Source of the DNA: Candidatus Dojkabacteria bacterium
GTDB lineage: Bacteria; Patescibacteriota; Dojkabacteria; JAHIVN01
Assembly: GCA_016932045.1 (NCBI GenBank)
Contig: JAFGDO010000001.1
Location: 1,014 to 65,013 of the forward strand
Length of the DNA: 64,000 nucleotides
Direction: 5' to 3'
Below the pieces are notes generated by a model that was given only the letters and a program-made list of their open reading frames with translations, made no database searches and was not told where the DNA came from. Positions within the stretch are counted from its first letter, which is position 1. Each line of letters begins with the position of its first letter. The translations under genes and the position numbers were made by a program. This document shows, in pieces, positions 29,765 through 38,887 of the stretch.

Positions 29765-30082
29765 ATGAAAGTTCTTAGGTTTATCATAAAAATACCTGAC
29801 TATATCGCAGTAGGTTTGATAAAGATATATCAATTCTTTTTTTCCACCGACCATGCATTTTGGGCAAGACCGGATGTATTTAGAATATGCACATACAAAC
29901 CAAGCTGTTCAGAATTTACCAGCCAGGCAATCCTAAAATATGGCTTAATTCCCGGTTCAATAATGGGACTTAAAAGAATTATAGATTGTAATCCTTTCTC
30001 AAAAGGAGGATACGATCCTGTTCCAGAAAGATATACACTGAAGAGATACAAAGGGAAAGATGCGAAACCGGCGTATGAGTAA
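29765..30082 (+). CDS. yidD: Membrane protein insertion efficiency factor YidD family.
   Basis: IKIYQFFFS...CTYKPSCSEFTSQAILKYGLIPGSIMGLKRIIDCNPFSKGGYDPVPE matches the YidD/DUF37 signature (CRFxPSCSxY...G...RIxRCHPxxxGGxDPVP). Confidence 0.8.
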   Translation: MKVLRFIIKIPDYIAVGLIKIYQFFFSTDHAFWARPDVFRICTYKPSCSEFTSQAILKYGLIPGSIMGLKRIIDCNPFSKGGYDPVPERYTLKRYKGKDAKPAYE

Positions 30083-30189: not shown

Positions 30190-30840
30190 AGAGTTGTTGG
30201 TTCAGGGCCTCTGCCCTGAACCAGTTCTGCTACTTGTTGTATCAGGGCCTTCACCTTGAACCATATCCTACTACTCTACAACCACATCTATTACCGAATT
30301 ATCGTTATTTATATAGTTTCTCGCTGAAGAATACCTCCAATCTTCCTCCTTTTCAACATACCATTTAGCAACTGGGTTCTCATGAATATAGTTTAACTTC
30401 TGTTCAAAAAAATTAACACTTTCAACGATTTCTGGCCAATTACCATTCTGCCAAACCTTGAAATTTTGCCCAACCTTTCTTCCTAAATCACATAATGTTT
30501 TAAAGCAAAGCTTATTCCCATTTCTTTCGAGAATGGATTTTATCTCTTTTGCCGTATAACTTTTAAAACTACGAACAAATTTAATCATATCAGAACATTG
30601 CGCTATTATATGAATATGATCGTACATAATCACATAGGCATTAATTTTTAAATCCAGCTTCCTTTGATAGAACTTTAAAGATCGAATAACTACCTCGCAA
30701 TACCTGTCTTGAGAAAAAAGGTTAAACCATTTCATAATAGAAAATGTTAAGAAGTATGTTCGATCTTTTAGACATGCAGAAATCCTTGTAGATGACATAT
30801 CATCACTTTTAAATTCAGGGCAGGAGCCCTGAACTAACTA
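30190..30840 (-). mobile_element. IS200/IS605-type element: HUH (Y1) transposase flanked by GC-rich subterminal hairpins.
   Basis: Hairpins: GGTTCAGGGC-CTCT-GCCCTGAACC (30198-30221), a degenerate copy at about 30239-30262, and TTCAGGGC-AGGA-GCCCTGAA (30814-30833). They bracket the transposase ORF. Confidence 0.7.
30271..30798 (-). CDS. IS200-like / REP-associated tyrosine (HUH) transposase.
   Basis: MYDHIHIIAQ (HuH motif) and C-terminal catalytic Tyr region (WRYSSARNY), about 175 aa as in the Y1_Tnp family. Confidence 0.8.
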   Translation of the reverse strand: MSSTRISACLKDRTYFLTFSIMKWFNLFSQDRYCEVVIRSLKFYQRKLDLKINAYVIMYDHIHIIAQCSDMIKFVRSFKSYTAKEIKSILERNGNKLCFKTLCDLGRKVGQNFKVWQNGNWPEIVESVNFFEQKLNYIHENPVAKWYVEKEEDWRYSSARNYINNDNSVIDVVVE

Positions 30841-31098
30841 TGGATAACAAACATCATATTTAATAATTGCTCACACTTGATGTTGAAAACTCCAACCAAA
30901 AAAGTTTATATACAAAAAACAAATATCAGCAGATGGATTTGTTGTATACCTAATCGTAAACGAGACAGAAGGAACAGTTTGATCTATCTCAGCCATGTCT
31001 TCAAATGTATTCACATCATCTTCTTGTATAAAAGACTTCCAACAATCAGTTTCCGAAGTAAATTCCAGGCTAATTCCATTATTTTGCTTATTATATTT

Positions 31099-31830
31099 CT
31101 AAGTCCCCTTTGAATTAAAATCATTACTCTTCCAGCCTGAAAATGTAAATGAACCATCACTATCGAAAACCATCTTTCCATCTGAAATCTCATGAGATAT
31201 ATCTTCAAATATCCATTCCCCAAATATTTTTTGTTCATCTATAAGTCCACAGATTCCTCCTGTATCATAACCTTGATTCCTTTCAGAACTTTCTGAACTT
31301 TTATATAAATACTCATTCAACCAATCTATATAATACCTACCTTCCTCACAACCTTGGTAATTCTCGCGTTCTGCATAATCAACCTTAAATTCAATAGTTT
31401 TATCTTCTAAACTATAACTCACTACACCAGTGAACGATTCCACTAAACTTTCATCAGACAGGATATTATTCCATACTTCATTTATTTCGTTAAAATTGAA
31501 TCTAATTGAACTTGAATCCTTCTTGTACTCCCATTTTCCCGAAAGTTCATATTCACGATCCCCTTCTATTTCTTCAACAAAATAATGAAATTCTCCATCC
31601 TCTAGTAACACTAATTTTAAATATGCTGGGAAATCAGTATTTTTATTGCTCCATTCTCCTATAAGTTGATCTTCTGCCAGTAGTAAGCAGTCATCCTGAG
31701 TTATTTTAGATTCATCTTTTAAACTCTCCCCCTCTTCAGACTTTTTTCTCAATATAATAGCTGTAACTATTGTTACAGCTATTATCATCAGAATAACTAT
31801 CGCACCTAGAATAATCTTATTTTTTCTCAT
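31099..31830 (-). CDS. Hypothetical membrane-anchored protein.
   Basis: N-terminal TM (IILGAIVILMIIAVTIVTAIIL), acidic ectodomain, no known motif. Confidence 0.4.
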   Translation of the reverse strand: MRKNKIILGAIVILMIIAVTIVTAIILRKKSEEGESLKDESKITQDDCLLLAEDQLIGEWSNKNTDFPAYLKLVLLEDGEFHYFVEEIEGDREYELSGKWEYKKDSSSIRFNFNEINEVWNNILSDESLVESFTGVVSYSLEDKTIEFKVDYAERENYQGCEEGRYYIDWLNEYLYKSSESSERNQGYDTGGICGLIDEQKIFGEWIFEDISHEISDGKMVFDSDGSFTFSGWKSNDFNSKGT

Positions 31831-31833
31831 GGC

Positions 31834-32226
31834 TTACTTTTTAAAATTAAAGTACTTGGAAGGATCAACATGATGACCATTCTCCCAAACCTCAAAGTGT
31901 AAATGAACTCCAGTCGCCTTCCCCGACTGACCCATATACATAATTTCTTCTCCTTTTCTAGTTTTCCTTGGATATATACCTGTATAATATTTGGCATGTC
32001 CATATCTAGTTTCATAGTTTCCTTCATGTTTGATAAAGACAGTATTGCCAGCATACCAGCCACTTGACGCATCCCCCTTGTACACTCCCACTATCTTACA
32101 ACCACCCCATTTTGCAAGATCAATTCCTGTATGGAATTTTATCTCCCCGGTAAAAGGATCATGTCTTTCACCATAATTACTTGAAATATAATAGCCTTCA
32201 CAACTAGGATCTGAAACCGGACTCAC
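31834..32226 (-). CDS. M23 (LytM/lysostaphin-type) peptidase domain protein.
   Basis: HTGIDLA...GNYETRYGH...GHLHFEV are the HxxxD and HxH zinc-ligand motifs of M23 peptidases. It lies 25 nt downstream of the giant surface-protein gene, in a different frame. Confidence 0.8.
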   Translation of the reverse strand: MSPVSDPSCEGYYISSNYGERHDPFTGEIKFHTGIDLAKWGGCKIVGVYKGDASSGWYAGNTVFIKHEGNYETRYGHAKYYTGIYPRKTRKGEEIMYMGQSGKATGVHLHFEVWENGHHVDPSKYFNFKK

Positions 32227-32251
32227 AGCAACATCAAAAATGAATGGTTTA

Positions 32252-35200
32252 TCAGGTACAACTTTTTAAATTACTATATTCACTTCGTAGCCCTAAATTC
32301 CATTGTGCTTCTTGCCGGTTTCTACCTCTGTAGTCGATTATCACACCTTGAAATTCAAACTGCCCGAAAATATTTGTTCTTGCCTTTACATAATCATTCA
32401 CATTGAGCTCGCTATTCAAAGTAAAGACTTTTTGAAATCTGCCGCTCAAATCATCATTCCAAATATGCCCGACTTCAGTATCTTCCCCATTGTCTTTATG
32501 AAAGGAGATCATAACGTGTTCAACTTGGAATCTATTGCCTCTATATTCCTTTACCTCTCTCCATGTAGTTTTTTTATTTTCAAGACACCACGGAACAAAG
32601 AAACACTGCTTATCCATTTCCCAAATCCAGGAACTAAGTCTTTCTATCCCCATCTTTTCTTCAATACAACGTCTCTCGCCATTATCAATGAAATAACCTA
32701 CATCGCACTCTTTAACCGCTTCGTTATAAGTCTTATACTCCCTTTTTATATCTGCAGTTAATGAATGCCCCTTTGGAATTGCAACACCATACACTTCTAC
32801 TAATCCATCTTCAGTTGTATATACTGTAGTCAACTCTGGAGTAGGAATAAATACTCCGTTGATGTTATAGTTCTCATCTGAGCTAATACTGATATCTAAA
32901 TTAACATCTGACAAAGAACTCCCATATCTGTCCCCCCATGGATTCTCAGAAACTTCTCCTTCAACATCACCTATCGCCCAAGTCGGCGTATGGTAAATTC
33001 CAGTTACAGTTTCAGAGAAATTTCTAGCACGATCCTGGAGTTGGACATCAACTCTGTATTCTGCCCCCCACATCCAACTTGTAAAAGAACTTAATTTTAG
33101 CTGCCTATTTTCATCTATTTTATACTCCTGTTCACCTAAATCAATACCACTTCTATAAATATGAACTTTTACCTTAGAATACTTTTCTCCTTTTATTTCT
33201 AAGGATAATTTCCTCTGAGCAGGATTACCGTTGAAAAATACTTCTGGTTTCGCAGGCGGCACAGTATCACGTTCGACTTCATATGTAAGTATTTCGGAAT
33301 TATTTCCAGGAGCATCTGTAGATTTCACCTTAATCATATACAATCCATCCTCTTGAGGTCCTGAGTTCTTACCAAAGTTAACATTCTCCTGCCATATACT
33401 TCGAGGCTCATTTTGGAAAGTACAGTAATCTTCAATCCCCTTTGGATTTGTAACCCATAATTCTATATCGCTCAGTCTTTCAGCTTCTCCTTTCAATAGA
33501 ACACTATATTTATTAGTAATATTACCAAAACCATCATCATCCCAGTAATCAGCCGATCTGACTTCATTCGGTTTGCCTGGAGCGGTTTTATCATAGTAGA
33601 GTAATTCTCCTTTTGAAATAGAGCTCTTATTCCCTGCACGATCCTGCACCTTAGTTTGAATAATATAACCTTGTTCGAAAGCACCTATGTTAAGATTAAA
33701 ACTCCAGTCACAAAGAGGATAATAAACACCAGTATATGCCAAAGTTTTACCTTCGCAATTGTCGCTACCAACTAAAATTTCATCGATCTCATATGAACTA
33801 AGCCAGATTTCAACTTTTGAGTTCTCTTCTGCTTTACCTTTAATCTCCAGCTCCCTTCCGCGAATAACATATTCTGGCAGGATTCTTCCCTTTGCCGGCA
33901 ACTCATGTTTTGCATAAATACCGTTGTATTTTCCCCATTCAGATATATCTATATCCGAAAAATTAGGCTTTGTATTATCAATAATATAGGTAAATTCACC
34001 ATTTGCGGCATTTCCGGCATAATCCTCAATATTAATGTCAATACTATAATTTCCTTCATCTGCTTCAGATTCAATGACAAAACCTCCAAGATAGTTTTGT
34101 CTCGAATTATCTCCGAGCAAATGAAACCTAGCTGAATCCTGCCTTATTACTGTAACATAAGTCAGTGCTTCGTTGGATTGAATAAAGATGTCTGCAGCAG
34201 TTCCTGATTGATGAAATGAATTTGAAGTAGTGATATTTCGAAACTCTGGCGCAATTTTATCAAGAACTACATTTACAGGAAAAGAGATTTCGCTCTTATT
34301 GTTTACATTATCGCTACTAACAGAAGAAATTTCATATTTCCTATAACTACTTATAAAGGGTAACTTGATATTTGCCTTCCATTTCCCTGTAGGATCTGCT
34401 TTACAGACATAAACTTCAACACCATCCACAAGGATGTGTACATAACTTAATGGCTCCGCTATACCGTTTATTATCAATTTCTCATCATTTGTATAATAAT
34501 CTTCCCTAAACTTTTTTAAATCTACCAGTAAGTCTTCCTTTATAAGCTTTGTTATAGTAGGCACAACTGGAATAGTTCCATCTATTCGAATGCCAATACT
34601 CATGGTCTTCTCTGTCTCCCCCTTCCTTCCCACGAACTCTATCTCGTAAATTCCACCGCTCACGTCTGGAGTAGTCCATAGATAATCCCATGTGCATTCG
34701 TTTTGGGTACATCCCCTTCCAAAACCATCAACTCGTCCTATTTTGTACCGATCTAATGAACCATCAGGCAACTCAGAAAGATTAGAATAATCTGCAAAAC
34801 TGATATCAACATATTCTGTATATTGTGTTACAAGACTCCTTAGAATTACTTCCTGATCTACCCCTGTAAGCGAAGGTAGAGCTCGCACGCTCAACAAAGG
34901 ATCTGAAAAATCCAAGATTACTTTTACTACATTGCTCTTGGAAGTTTCATTCCCAGAAAAATCAATAGCATAAGCCCAAAGATATGACTCCTTGGTGGTA
35001 AGTGGAACTATCCCTGTAAAAAAGCCGTACTCATTAACCTCCAAAACCTGCTCATCATTACAGTCACCATCAATGCCAATCAGGTCAACACATAATCTTA
35101 CTACAGTATCAAGAGGTGCTTGGCCCTGTACATTTATAACTCCCTTTGCAGTAACCGTGTGGTTCTTCGGATTAGTTATAACAACTTCACCATCAACTTT

Positions 35201-38122
35201 TGTTTTAACATAAAACTTAACTGGATCGGTGCCAAACTCGACCCCATCAGTAGTTCTTATCCATAAAGAATATGTATACTCGCCGTCTGAAAGCCAGCTC
35301 CCGTTACTATCCTTTCCATTAAAGTAATAATTCGGCGGCAGTCCATCAGACCCACTTAATAATGCAACAATATCTTCACCTATATCTTTTATATGAATTT
35401 CCCACACCTCTACTTGCACATCTTCTTCTTGGCTATCTCTGTTATACACTTTTAAAGTAAAATCAATTCCATCCTGCCTGCCATCGCCATTCGGAGAGAT
35501 GTATTCATTATTCCCTTCAATTGATAGATTAACTGCGTATAAATTCACTTCTACATTTAATTCCACTCCTGCAATGTTTTTTGCATTATCAATAAGTTCC
35601 AAACTGATGTTATTTTTAACGTAAATATCATTGACCTGATTCGCCCTCAACTGAAATTCCTCAATTTCAAAATCACACACTTCTTTTACTCCTTCCCAGC
35701 CTATACCAAATCTACTTTCTACCGGATGACAATTGTATATACCTTGCTGATCCGGATTTATATTAATGATAATTTCGGTTTCACTGCCTGTTACATTAAG
35801 TCTTGAATTACTTTCCGCTTGTCCTCTAATGGTAACCTTGGAATGGTTCATTAACTCTCCTTGTAAAGGTGTTTCAATTTGTAAATAAGTATGCGAATCT
35901 AGTGTAAATAGTTCCTTGAAAATATCAGACTGGTTTCCGGCAACATCTCGTACTGTAGACTTAATAGTATAGTCACCATCAGGTTGAAGCGGATTATCAA
36001 AGAAATAAGAATAAATACATTCGAATGATCCCTCGATTTCAACATTTAAACAACTTGTTTCAATATGACCCAATTGTGTTTGGATATTCTTACCATCACT
36101 CACGAGTACAAGTTCATTATTACTTCCCTCAAGTAGAGAAAGATTTATACTTTGCGAATCTATACCACTTTGAAAAATCTCATTATATTCATCAGATAAC
36201 TTGAGATTTATATTTGGAGTTCGATCATTTATCAAACCAATAGGAGCAGTTACTTCTAATTTAGGAACATCAATTTCTTTATTCACTTTTAATGATTGAG
36301 TACTAATATTCCCAGCAGAGTCCATTGCCATAAAAGTAAAAACATTCTCACCCAAACTTAATTGTTCTTCCACTTCGAAAATTCCATAGTGATCTACAAA
36401 AAGTAACCTATTGTTTATGCTTAGCAAGGCTGTCTCCTCAGTTATACCTGAAATAAAGACTGTATCAGTGTTAAGCCAGGCACCATCAATAGGTTTAGAA
36501 ATATTTACAGTAGCAGGAGTATTATCCACTACTACTAAGACATCTGAATCTGGCGAAAAATTTCCAGCTTTATCAAAGGCACGTAACTTAAATGTATACA
36601 GGCCATCTAGAACTATATTTCCTGAATTATCTGTACCATCCCAAATGACCAGATCGCTTAACGAAGTACCCCTAAAACTTTTAATTGTCACATCATATAA
36701 ATCAAGAATGGTTGCTTCCCAATGATCAAAGTGCTCATCAAACACCTCGAAAGAAAGTTCAGTGCTATCAAATCTCCCATCTGCATTCGGACTTATAACC
36801 TCCTCACTTACCTGAGCATTTAAAATTGCCGGTAGGATAGAGTCTTGACGGGATTTTACAAATTCACTCCAGTCGTTCTCATTTCCCAACTTATCCTTTG
36901 ACTTTACTTGATAGCAATAAGTAGCATCGTGGTACAAATCCGCTATAGTAAATTCTTGAGATTCCTGCCAGTCGCCTTCATAAAAATAAGTGTTACAATT
37001 CTCGCCTTCAAAGACGCCAAATTTGTATTTTACTTCTTTTAGTAATGAATCAAAACTTAAAGTTGACCTAACTGTATTCTGATTTCCTTGAGAAAATTCC
37101 GGTTCCCCTATAACTTCAGGAGATGACGGAGGAGTGGTGTCTATAATAAATGTGTATATTGCCGAATAGTCACTCCACACATCCATCTGATCTTTTGATC
37201 TTGTCTTCCACTCCCAGATACCATCAGGTAAGAATTTTGTAAACTGCGCGGTTTTTTGACCGTCACGCTTCGGTGAAATTTCCCAGTCTCTATCTTTTAA
37301 CCTTTTATAGTAAAACCAAGTACCATCAAAGTTACCATCAGGATCCCCAAGATCTTTAACTTTCATAGTAATCTCATATCCTTGGCAAGAAGAATCTCCT
37401 CCAAACTCTGCTTTATTTGTCGGACTTGTAGGATTTGGTATATTTGGAGCATGATTTGCAGAGTAATTAACAACGAGTCGGGGTTGACTAGATTCAAAGC
37501 AGGTTGAGTTATTATAATTTCGAGTACACCAGAAACCTCCAACATTCCCTTGGTCCTTATATAGCACAAGACCATAATTAGAAATGCCCTGTACCCACTC
37601 CCTTACAAGATTTGTAACATCAAAAGTGTATTTTTGTGGAGGATTAAACCACTGTCCCGCCCCTCCCGAAATCCAACTTTGTGCATAGATGCCGCTAAAA
37701 TCGGGTTTATTATTCCAATTAACGTTCATCTCTGACCAATCTTGATTCACTTTCGCTACATTGACTAGGTAATCTCCAGATGCATAATCACTTCGGACAT
37801 ACTGATAAACTTCTAAATATGCAGATTCGATAATTGACTGAGAACTCAGCATAGACAAATCAAACTTAATGTACGCATATGAATTTGAAAAATAATTACC
37901 TAGATTCCAGCTTCTTCCGACAGTCATATCGTTCCAGGATCCATAATTCTTCTCAAATCCTTCTCTTGCCATAGCATCTGCAACAGGAGTAAGATTCAGC
38001 TGAGAAGAAGCTTGAACGTCATCATAAGATTGACTAACGGCAAAAATCAGCGACGTTAAAACACTTTGAGCTATAAAAAATAGTATTATGCGAAGAAACT
38101 TGTTAAAATAATTCTTACTCAA
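32252..38122 (-). CDS. Giant (1956 aa) secreted multi-domain surface protein (adhesin-like).
   Basis: Signal peptide. N-terminal module (GSWNDMTVGRSWNLGNYFSNSYAYIKFDLSML...AYLEVYQY) resembles DNRLRE/carbohydrate-binding-type domains. It is followed by dozens of approximately 90-110-aa beta-rich, Ig-like repeats. No C-terminal TM. Confidence 0.7.
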   Translation of the reverse strand: MSKNYFNKFLRIILFFIAQSVLTSLIFAVSQSYDDVQASSQLNLTPVADAMAREGFEKNYGSWNDMTVGRSWNLGNYFSNSYAYIKFDLSMLSSQSIIESAYLEVYQYVRSDYASGDYLVNVAKVNQDWSEMNVNWNNKPDFSGIYAQSWISGGAGQWFNPPQKYTFDVTNLVREWVQGISNYGLVLYKDQGNVGGFWCTRNYNNSTCFESSQPRLVVNYSANHAPNIPNPTSPTNKAEFGGDSSCQGYEITMKVKDLGDPDGNFDGTWFYYKRLKDRDWEISPKRDGQKTAQFTKFLPDGIWEWKTRSKDQMDVWSDYSAIYTFIIDTTPPSSPEVIGEPEFSQGNQNTVRSTLSFDSLLKEVKYKFGVFEGENCNTYFYEGDWQESQEFTIADLYHDATYCYQVKSKDKLGNENDWSEFVKSRQDSILPAILNAQVSEEVISPNADGRFDSTELSFEVFDEHFDHWEATILDLYDVTIKSFRGTSLSDLVIWDGTDNSGNIVLDGLYTFKLRAFDKAGNFSPDSDVLVVVDNTPATVNISKPIDGAWLNTDTVFISGITEETALLSINNRLLFVDHYGIFEVEEQLSLGENVFTFMAMDSAGNISTQSLKVNKEIDVPKLEVTAPIGLINDRTPNINLKLSDEYNEIFQSGIDSQSINLSLLEGSNNELVLVSDGKNIQTQLGHIETSCLNVEIEGSFECIYSYFFDNPLQPDGDYTIKSTVRDVAGNQSDIFKELFTLDSHTYLQIETPLQGELMNHSKVTIRGQAESNSRLNVTGSETEIIININPDQQGIYNCHPVESRFGIGWEGVKEVCDFEIEEFQLRANQVNDIYVKNNISLELIDNAKNIAGVELNVEVNLYAVNLSIEGNNEYISPNGDGRQDGIDFTLKVYNRDSQEEDVQVEVWEIHIKDIGEDIVALLSGSDGLPPNYYFNGKDSNGSWLSDGEYTYSLWIRTTDGVEFGTDPVKFYVKTKVDGEVVITNPKNHTVTAKGVINVQGQAPLDTVVRLCVDLIGIDGDCNDEQVLEVNEYGFFTGIVPLTTKESYLWAYAIDFSGNETSKSNVVKVILDFSDPLLSVRALPSLTGVDQEVILRSLVTQYTEYVDISFADYSNLSELPDGSLDRYKIGRVDGFGRGCTQNECTWDYLWTTPDVSGGIYEIEFVGRKGETEKTMSIGIRIDGTIPVVPTITKLIKEDLLVDLKKFREDYYTNDEKLIINGIAEPLSYVHILVDGVEVYVCKADPTGKWKANIKLPFISSYRKYEISSVSSDNVNNKSEISFPVNVVLDKIAPEFRNITTSNSFHQSGTAADIFIQSNEALTYVTVIRQDSARFHLLGDNSRQNYLGGFVIESEADEGNYSIDINIEDYAGNAANGEFTYIIDNTKPNFSDIDISEWGKYNGIYAKHELPAKGRILPEYVIRGRELEIKGKAEENSKVEIWLSSYEIDEILVGSDNCEGKTLAYTGVYYPLCDWSFNLNIGAFEQGYIIQTKVQDRAGNKSSISKGELLYYDKTAPGKPNEVRSADYWDDDGFGNITNKYSVLLKGEAERLSDIELWVTNPKGIEDYCTFQNEPRSIWQENVNFGKNSGPQEDGLYMIKVKSTDAPGNNSEILTYEVERDTVPPAKPEVFFNGNPAQRKLSLEIKGEKYSKVKVHIYRSGIDLGEQEYKIDENRQLKLSSFTSWMWGAEYRVDVQLQDRARNFSETVTGIYHTPTWAIGDVEGEVSENPWGDRYGSSLSDVNLDISISSDENYNINGVFIPTPELTTVYTTEDGLVEVYGVAIPKGHSLTADIKREYKTYNEAVKECDVGYFIDNGERRCIEEKMGIERLSSWIWEMDKQCFFVPWCLENKKTTWREVKEYRGNRFQVEHVMISFHKDNGEDTEVGHIWNDDLSGRFQKVFTLNSELNVNDYVKARTNIFGQFEFQGVIIDYRGRNRQEAQWNLGLRSEYSNLKSCT

Positions 38123-38305: not shown

Positions 38306-38887
38306 ATGAACCGTATAAGAATTAACAGAAAGAAAATTCTTCCTAAAAAAGCAAAAAAGGTTTTTTCGGGTGTAATTTTTGATGTGTATCACTGGGATCA
38401 AAAGGTGTTTGATGGAAGCACTCAAACCTTTGAGATGCTGAAACGACCGGATACTGCGGTGGTGATTCCGACAACTATTGACCGCAAGATTCTCGTTCAA
38501 TACGAAGAACAGCCACACAAGGGAAAATTTATATCCTTTCCTGGTGGACGAGTAAGTGATCCAATAAATATCGACTTAGAAGCAGCAAGAGAATTGAGCG
38601 AGGAAACCGGATATTCTTCATTAAAGTTAAAACTGTGGAAAGAGATACAACCAACGAGCAAGATGGACTACATGGTTTACTACTTTATTGCTCAAGGCTG
38701 CAAGAAAGTAACTAATCAAAAGCTCGATAAAGGAGAAAGAATAGAAGTAAGGCCACTTAGCCTTGACGAATTAATTAAACTCTTTGTCGAAGATAAGTTT
38801 AGAGGAACAGAGATAAAAGTTGATTTTTTGAAGGCCTATTACGACAAGAATATTCATAAACAATTAGAAAGAATACTATTTGGATAA
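38306..38887 (+). CDS. NUDIX hydrolase (ADP-ribose pyrophosphatase-like).
   Basis: Nudix box SFPGGRVSDPINIDLEAARELSEETGY. Confidence 0.8.
   Translation: MNRIRINRKKILPKKAKKVFSGVIFDVYHWDQKVFDGSTQTFEMLKRPDTAVVIPTTIDRKILVQYEEQPHKGKFISFPGGRVSDPINIDLEAARELSEETGYSSLKLKLWKEIQPTSKMDYMVYYFIAQGCKKVTNQKLDKGERIEVRPLSLDELIKLFVEDKFRGTEIKVDFLKAYYDKNIHKQLERILFG

Follow-up and report, generated by a model that had tools for sequence, protein, structure and literature searches.

The giant open reading frame (ORF) and the small M23 peptidase ORF that follows it in a Candidatus Dojkabacteria bacterium are, with high probability, two parts of one ancestral gene that was broken by a change of +1 nucleotide (nt) in a run of A. 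The two ORFs are located on contig JAFGDO010000001.1, in a stretch of 64,000 nt that is referred to as the window; coordinates are positions of this stretch unless another locus is named, and its genes described here are on the minus strand unless marked (+). An earlier note on this DNA described a 1956-amino-acid (aa) ORF followed 25 nt later, in a different frame, by an ORF for an M23 domain that has intact zinc ligands and no signal peptide of its own, and the coordinates were confirmed. The giant ORF ends with ...NLKSCT-TGA-TAA, where TGA TAA is at 32254-32249, and its product is identical to P0121 in NCBI/Logan ('DNRLRE domain-containing protein [Candidatus Dojkabacteria bacterium]'). The M23 ORF starts with GTG at 32226, in the +1 frame relative to the giant. 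Its N terminus is not hydrophobic, with a maximum Kyte-Doolittle score over 19 residues of 0.49 versus 2.27 for the N terminus of the giant, which agrees with the claimed lack of a signal peptide. Recoding of the TGA was dropped as irrelevant because the codon is directly followed by TAA.

The junction between the two ORFs retains the trace of a single frame. The GTG of the annotated M23 ORF lies inside a longer open frame, which extends upstream to 32265, into the four final codons of the giant ORF, and encodes KVVPDKPFIFDVA. The run of five A residues (A5) is exactly in this overlap, the 11-nt stretch where the shift must have occurred. When one A was removed from A5, the two frames were joined into a 2095-aa protein, whose frame does not include the SCT-TGA-TAA at the present end of the giant ORF. 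A protein alignment of this corrected reading with ortholog P0001 ran across the junction with no gap (window ...GLRSEYSNLK|VVPDKPFIFDVAVSPVSD versus P0001 ...GLKSHFSNSLKIPKSPFAFSNAVSPVSD), and the other full-length orthologs likewise aligned through the junction gap-free. At the DNA level, the interval from the conserved Ser-Asn codons to the SDxSC motif was exactly 1 nt longer in the window than in five orthologs. In addition, the linker residues encoded 5' of the GTG, which read KPFIFDVAVS in the M23 frame, are conserved in orthologs (e.g., 'EKPFIFDVAVSSVSD' in P0125).

Next, we compared the locus with its orthologs. A query that joined the C-terminal ~290 aa of the giant to the M23 segment covered 97% of P0001 (Ca. 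Dojkabacteria, 48% identity) and 83% of P0002. The search with the giant ORF returned its own protein, P0121, and seven full-length orthologs of 2080 to 2151 aa, each longer than 1956 aa by about one hydrolase domain, and two further fused loci, L003 (2073 aa) and L094, came from genome and metagenome scans. In the GTDB genome scan, two matches were true orthologous loci, both fused, and the other 78 were unrelated M23 genes; the metagenome search with the alignment of M23 and the module preceding it (the pre-module, described below) gave only one further true locus, also fused. The loci are positional orthologs by their gene neighborhoods because the YidD and NUDIX neighbors recur around them: YidD is near the locus on the opposite strand in L001, L083/L084, L086, L087, and the window, and the NUDIX gene is upstream in L086, L089, and the window. 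Every ortholog with a complete C terminus (2073 to 2151 aa at full length, from Ca. Dojkabacteria/Patescibacteria) carries the hydrolase in frame, and no separate M23 gene was present in any ortholog found. These results, at the level of sequence comparison, show a one-gene origin and are the opposite of the consistently separate genes that would have spoken against it. They bear out the suggestion of the earlier note that the M23 ORF is a recently split C-terminal lytic domain.

The same note had offered a second possibility, in which the M23 ORF would be a gene in its own right and would encode a partner protein that reaches the giant by another export route. The start codon required is available in the GTG 25 nt past the stop, and the missing ribosome-binding site is uninformative, because Shine-Dalgarno (SD)-like motifs are almost absent upstream of the window's 48 ORF starts. 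The upstream regions are simply AT rich, and translation initiation in this organism appears to be largely SD independent. The conserved family residues in the same frame 5' of the GTG, the lack of a signal peptide or transmembrane segment, and the absence of orthologs with a separate M23 gene argue against an independent gene. A promoter and terminator scan of 30700-32500 gave counts no higher than the shuffled expectation, with nothing promoter-like in the 25-nt gap. This origin of the M23 ORF is therefore scarcely credible, and the claim of a separately secreted partner was not sustained.

Given a single ancestral gene, the extra A could be a real mutation or an error. In the latter case the gene would be intact (A4), and the fifth A would have entered the consensus through a homopolymer error or as a minority variant. 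An error would fit a one-base lesion in a homopolymer, since this is the most frequent type of error, and an M23 ORF that shows no other damage and keeps all its catalytic residues. Coverage can also be low in metagenome-assembled contigs of this lineage, as in ortholog contig L004, whose name includes cov 3.7. On the other hand, a separate Logan assembly (contig L002, run SRR13394437) showed no difference from the window along 11,253 bp, A5 included, with the same calls of 1956 and 130 aa. A run of five is short for indel errors of the Illumina type. Of the window's 462 homopolymers of at least five bases, 25 are within the giant gene, and a broken frame was noticed only at A5, although the other genes were unchecked for splits. 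A second lesion, of the substitution type, is present in the adjoining partner gene, where a Trp codon that is invariant in the family has changed from TGG to TAG. Because two independent inactivating changes are in one cassette, genuine erosion of the locus is favored and is the likely explanation, and an artefact is unlikely. We infer that the frameshift is real, while two observations weigh against this reading: both assemblies are probably from one run and could share a systematic error or a minority allele, and the absence of further lesions in the M23 ORF fits a very recent event and an artefact alike. In JGI metagenomes, a search for the junction with A4 or in another variant form gave 0 matches.

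A real extra base could also be functional, if a programmed +1 ribosomal frameshift or a phase-variable homopolymer switch allowed the full-length, enzyme-bearing protein to be made part of the time. Phase variation classically affects surface proteins, and AAA-A is itself slippery, permitting perfect re-pairing of tRNA-Lys in the +1 frame. The surroundings of the site do not resemble those of a +1 frameshift site: the codon after AAA is AGU, which is neither a stop nor rare, the stop is three codons further, and there is no upstream SD-like stimulator in an organism that hardly uses SD. Nor is the site conserved, as the extra base is in none of the five type-A loci compared at the junction nor in L094, all of which read straight through. 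A tract of five bases is also much shorter than those that slip often enough to be of use. A programmed or switching function is accordingly very improbable, and the disrupted gene remains our reading of the locus in the following description (Table 1).

Table 1. Features of the locus and its flanks, in positions of the window
Feature	Position	Strand	Description
Giant ORF	32252..38122	(-)	1956 aa, TTG start; N-terminal 93% of the ancestral ~2095-aa gene
Sec-type signal peptide or signal anchor	38009..38122	(-)	aa 1-38; basic n-region, hydrophobic core aa 12-29, conserved V-[QK]-A|S-S motif
CBM96/DNRLRE carbohydrate-binding-type head	37469..37996	(-)	aa 43-218; PF24517 72.8 bits (cutoff 26), NF033679 91.5 (cutoff 34)
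Immunoglobulin (Ig)-like stalk	33023..37465	(-)	aa ~220-1700; ~15 divergent beta-sandwich domains; Pfam Big_13, Big_6, FlgD_ig, Glucodextran_B, Big_3_2
Pre-module	32264..32980	(-)	aa 1715-1953, ~240 aa; conserved; always directly before the variable hydrolase in the alignments
A5 homopolymer	32263..32267	(-)	Most parsimonious site of one extra nucleotide (A4->A5), frame +1
Detached C-terminal segment	31834..32265	(-)	Ancestral frame: linker KVVPDKPFIFDVAVSPVSD, M23 domain (Pfam match 31861..32139), stop
Annotated M23 ORF	31834..32226	(-)	130 aa, GTG start
Partner gene	31099..31830	(-)	243 aa; N-terminal transmembrane helix and extracytoplasmic domain (weak DUF3994 match); starts 3 nt past the M23 stop
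Second, divergent tandem copy of the partner domain	30871..31263	(-)	Interrupted by TAG 31099-31101 in place of the family-invariant Trp
RAYT (REP-associated tyrosine transposase)	30271..30798	(-)	NF047646, E 5.6e-27; between the partner gene and YidD
YidD	29765..30082	(+)	Flanking gene
NUDIX hydrolase	38306..38887	(+)	Flanking gene

The intact protein would consist of an export signal, a glycan-binding-type head, a long stalk, the pre-module, a short linker, and the M23 domain. The signal was called from its hydropathy and from comparison with the N termini of orthologs, which have the same layout. Membership of the head in CBM96/DNRLRE was established at the sequence level by the curated thresholds of Pfam and NCBIfam. 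Alginate binding is the founding activity of CBM96 (PMC9971899) and is not to be assumed for the head of the giant. The number of Ig-like domains is an estimate from length, and a stalk of this size would measure ~60 nm if extended, judged from the typical size of an Ig domain. The last two Ig domains, modeled in ortholog P0001, matched the adhesins SiiE, MpIBP, and GhpA in Foldseek. The earlier note had called the giant repeat-rich, and this holds for its many divergent Ig-like domains but not for its DNA, in which Tandem Repeats Finder detected no tandem repeats within the gene. The pre-module has a beta-sandwich, a four-helix insert with four invariant Cys residues, and a second beta-sandwich according to the AlphaFold2 (AF2) model and the alignments. 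The model of the window's pre-module was confident (pLDDT 92.7, pTM 0.83), while the module as a whole had no match with an E value below 1e-3 among PDB folds in Foldseek and none in Pfam.

The M23 domain was assigned to Peptidase_M23 (PF01551) with 62.4 bits against a gathering cutoff of 28.7. Its best NCBIfam match was the MepM DD-endopeptidase (E 7e-20), which was below the equivalog cutoff and gives membership at the family level only. As noted earlier, the zinc ligands are intact: HTGID (HxxxD) and HLHFE (HxH), together with YGH (catalytic His), align to the solved enzymes NMB0315/6muk, ShyA, and LytM. In the AF2 model of ortholog P0001 (pLDDT 89.4), the M23 part has a LytM-type beta fold similar to those of LytM, EnpA, StM23, and ShyA (target-normalized TM scores of 0.75 to 0.82), and Csd3 was also among its Foldseek matches. 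The domain looks catalytically competent from its scores, motifs, and ortholog fold and is a predicted peptidoglycan cross-link endopeptidase of the MepM/ShyA/LytM type.

To place the protein in its family, a profile of the pre-module was compared with 1.84 billion cluster representatives, which gave 94 proteins, 28 of them with E values below 1e-30. Many are giants of 2250 to 2750 aa in which the module ends 150 to 240 aa before the C terminus. What follows the module is variable: Peptidase_C39_2-like cysteine peptidases form the largest group, besides several M23 subtypes and CHAP. P0125, P0122, and P0123 have bodies that are 60 to 62% identical and end with a type-A M23, a type-B M23, and a C39_2 domain, respectively. 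L003 and the window are 47% identical in the body and 71% identical in M23. Moreover, the variant-2 pre-module of type-C proteins is joined to a type-A M23 in P0125, and at L086 a pre-module of this variant occurs with both a type-A M23 and a type-A partner. Among close orthologs, the identity matrices showed hydrolase types discordant with the body phylogeny, as in polymorphic toxins, and because of this discordance the sequences show that the C-terminal enzyme is exchanged as a cassette. An IS1595-family transposase (L090 381..1265) is located directly upstream of the type-B ortholog P0122 and is possibly relevant to cassette mobility. Short secreted versions of 570 to 690 aa also occur (P0138, P0144, P0150, P0160, P0163, P0215, P0217, and others), with a signal peptide, about two Ig domains, the pre-module, and a hydrolase; the last ~620 aa of the giants are thus also found as stand-alone proteins.

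The gene downstream of the hydrolase was then examined across the loci. All six type-A M23 loci (window, L001, L003, L086, L088, and L089) encode a homologous small protein with an N-terminal transmembrane helix 3 to 30 nt downstream, and the other five are 33 to 47% identical to the window's partner. The two type-C loci (2/2) have homologous downstream proteins of the same N-terminal topology, of 462 and 496 aa (E 3e-21), and so do the two CHAP loci (2/2), with proteins of 136 and 146 aa (45% identity, E 1e-36) in different genomic neighborhoods. One of the CHAP-ended giants, L093 4001..11710, is located with its partner within a ribosomal-protein cluster, between rplO (L15) and secY. The partner therefore co-varies with the hydrolase in three of the four types, a small sample, and by sequence it travels with the hydrolase cassette in these three. 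A profile search with the type-A partner returned only three proteins, namely the window's partner and two of the aligned partners, with none outside type-A loci, and the type-A partner had no solved homolog and no PDB sequence match. From its context, the downstream protein is a candidate cognate immunity or inhibitor protein.

The second partner domain of the window is where the nonsense lesion is found. It consists of the C-terminal 50 aa of the partner and 75 further codons read through the TAG, and a hidden Markov model of the five other partners matched the read-through segment with 24.8 bits (E 1.6e-9). The TAG aligns with the invariant Trp of 'GKWEY', requiring a single TGG->TAG transition. 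The partners at the other five type-A loci have one domain only.

Taken together, these features suggest how the intact protein may have worked. The ~2,100-aa product would be exported by Sec through its signal peptide, with the CBM96/DNRLRE head, ~15 Ig-like domains, and the pre-module preceding the C-terminal M23 domain. The stalk would hold the hydrolase away from the producer, so that a host's or competitor's wall is opened where the cells touch, while the membrane-anchored partner would shield or regulate the producer's own wall in an immunity-like manner. In this genome, translation would end four codons after the shift and the exported product would lack the enzyme; the 130-aa M23 ORF, if translated, would have no export signal and could not reach peptidoglycan. 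With signal peptide and stalk no longer linked to the enzyme, the enzymatic or weapon function has probably been lost in this genome, and the truncated giant may keep an adhesive role.

Attack on the wall of a host or competitor, the lifestyle suggested in the earlier note, is plausible and is indirectly supported by the interchangeable hydrolase domains and the membrane protein that co-varies with them; the wider proposal that can be built on it is tentative. It describes a Sec-exported contact weapon of Dojkabacteria and related Patescibacteria for breaching such walls, with an Ig lance of ~2,100 to 2,700 aa, a glycan-binding head, a four-cysteine adaptor, and interchangeable M23/CHAP/C39-like warheads, each with a cognate membrane-anchored immunity protein; the window would represent a lineage that is losing the weapon and a second immunity domain. 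Several points weigh against this proposal. The partners at the C39 loci (213 and 215 aa), of the same size and N-terminal transmembrane topology, had no detectable similarity to each other, and co-variation is not universal. To our knowledge, Peptidase_C39_2 is not an established family of peptidoglycan hydrolases. The partner, with few relatives and no structural homolog, takes its proposed role from gene context, and the hydrolase could act on the wall of the producer itself. In this last case, the protein would be a self-directed autolysin or wall remodeler, for instance for insertion or anchoring of the fiber or for cell division, and the partner its regulator or anchor, which is compatible with the split. 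The closest characterized M23 relatives, MepM, ShyA, DipM, and Csd3, are housekeeping wall enzymes, the short versions have their own signal peptides, and the neighborhoods are conserved and of the housekeeping kind, including the one between rplO and secY. Such a role is hard to reconcile with the interchange of M23, CHAP, and C39-like enzymes, which differ in bond specificity, on bodies that are 60% identical, as one self substrate would not suit them all. In addition, an enzyme acting on the producer itself would not need a stalk of 2,100 aa, transfer of enzyme and partner is joint, as one cassette, and the enzyme is apparently dispensable in this genome. An autolysin is a possible but doubtful explanation, and the target of the enzyme and the immunity role of the partner are assigned here by analogy.

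The flanking YidD and NUDIX genes recur in several ortholog loci and are useful synteny anchors in Dojkabacteria. An HUH-type ORF similar to the RAYT gene of the window is in the same relative position in L086 (12826..13371).

The split itself is an ordinary event. In annotations, a single disrupted gene should take the place of the 1956-aa 'DNRLRE domain-containing protein' and the 130-aa 'M23 family metallopeptidase', which should not be read as two genes or an operon pair. The family is of wider, moderate interest. It is an open question how ultrasmall Patescibacteria breach the wall of the cells that carry them, and M23 peptidases of Patescibacteria have been tied to host lysis only by general speculation (PMC9530719, PMC11393006). 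The family described here is a concrete candidate for a wall-breaching device in an episymbiotic lineage, with an exported stalk that ends in a wall hydrolase, swapping of warheads, and a linked immunity-like partner gene. It also holds a confidently predicted module of ~240 aa with no solved structural relative. No description of this giant-protein family was found in the literature, and the family appears to be undescribed.

Finally, we compared the locus with known systems. The enzyme shares its sequence score, motifs, and predicted ortholog fold with the M23 family (LytM/lysostaphin/MepM/ShyA). Unlike the members of that family, it forms the C-terminal 130 aa of a stalk protein of ~2,100 aa, after a module with no solved homolog, and is cut off in this genome. 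The stalk resembles those of giant Ig-repeat adhesins, namely SiiE, the MpIBP ice adhesin, and the Aureispira grappling hook GhpA, in its tandem Ig-like domains and Foldseek matches, but this likeness is limited to the generic Ig fold, as those proteins are substrates of type I secretion or parts of other systems, with binding domains rather than a wall hydrolase at their end.

At the level of the locus, the nearest class is that of polymorphic toxins, reportedly defined by Zhang, Aravind, and colleagues, which is said to include Bacillus subtilis WapA/WapI as a Sec-exported monoderm example and also CdiA-CT/CdiI, Rhs, and LXG. Both have a large conserved body, a C-terminal effector discordant with the body phylogeny, and a conserved region at the swap point; a small gene directly downstream that changes with the effector was seen here for three of the four hydrolase types. 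The effectors here differ in being extracellular wall hydrolases instead of nucleases or deaminases, and the candidate immunity proteins in being membrane-anchored ectoproteins. Pfam and NCBIfam scans for trafficking or pretoxin domains (such as Rhs/YD, LXG, TPS, PT-TG, and PT-HINT) found none of them; the domains detected were of the CBM96/DNRLRE and Ig types only. Arrays of orphan cassettes were not seen either. Because the known trafficking and pretoxin domains are absent, the effectors are extracellular wall hydrolases, and the immunity protein is a candidate, the locus is said to resemble a polymorphic toxin/immunity system and is not called a member. Wall-targeting effectors with extracytoplasmic immunity are known from type VI secretion (Tae/Tai and Tse1/Tsi1), type VII secretion (TelC/TipC), lysostaphin/Lif, and zoocin A/Zif. 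The locus likewise pairs a wall-directed enzyme with an adjacent gene for an extracytoplasmic, candidate protective product, and its M23 domain is directly related to zoocin A and LytM in sequence and fold. In contrast to these pairs, it has no dedicated secretion machine, delivery would be by the covalent giant stalk, and the partner is unrelated to known immunity families. The lactococcal phage Tal proteins are tail-associated lysins with a C-terminal M23 domain, and the M23 domain of the window also matched PDB 9m7n, 'Gp16' (915 aa, M23 at residues 782-913). The giant differs from phage lysins in being a cellular protein with a Sec signal and another carrier architecture, in a conserved chromosomal neighborhood with no nearby phage genes. 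It shares with them a long fibrous carrier with a terminal M23 domain, which in the phages opens the target wall locally at the point of contact, and the tail-associated lysins are the closest analogy for how this protein may work.

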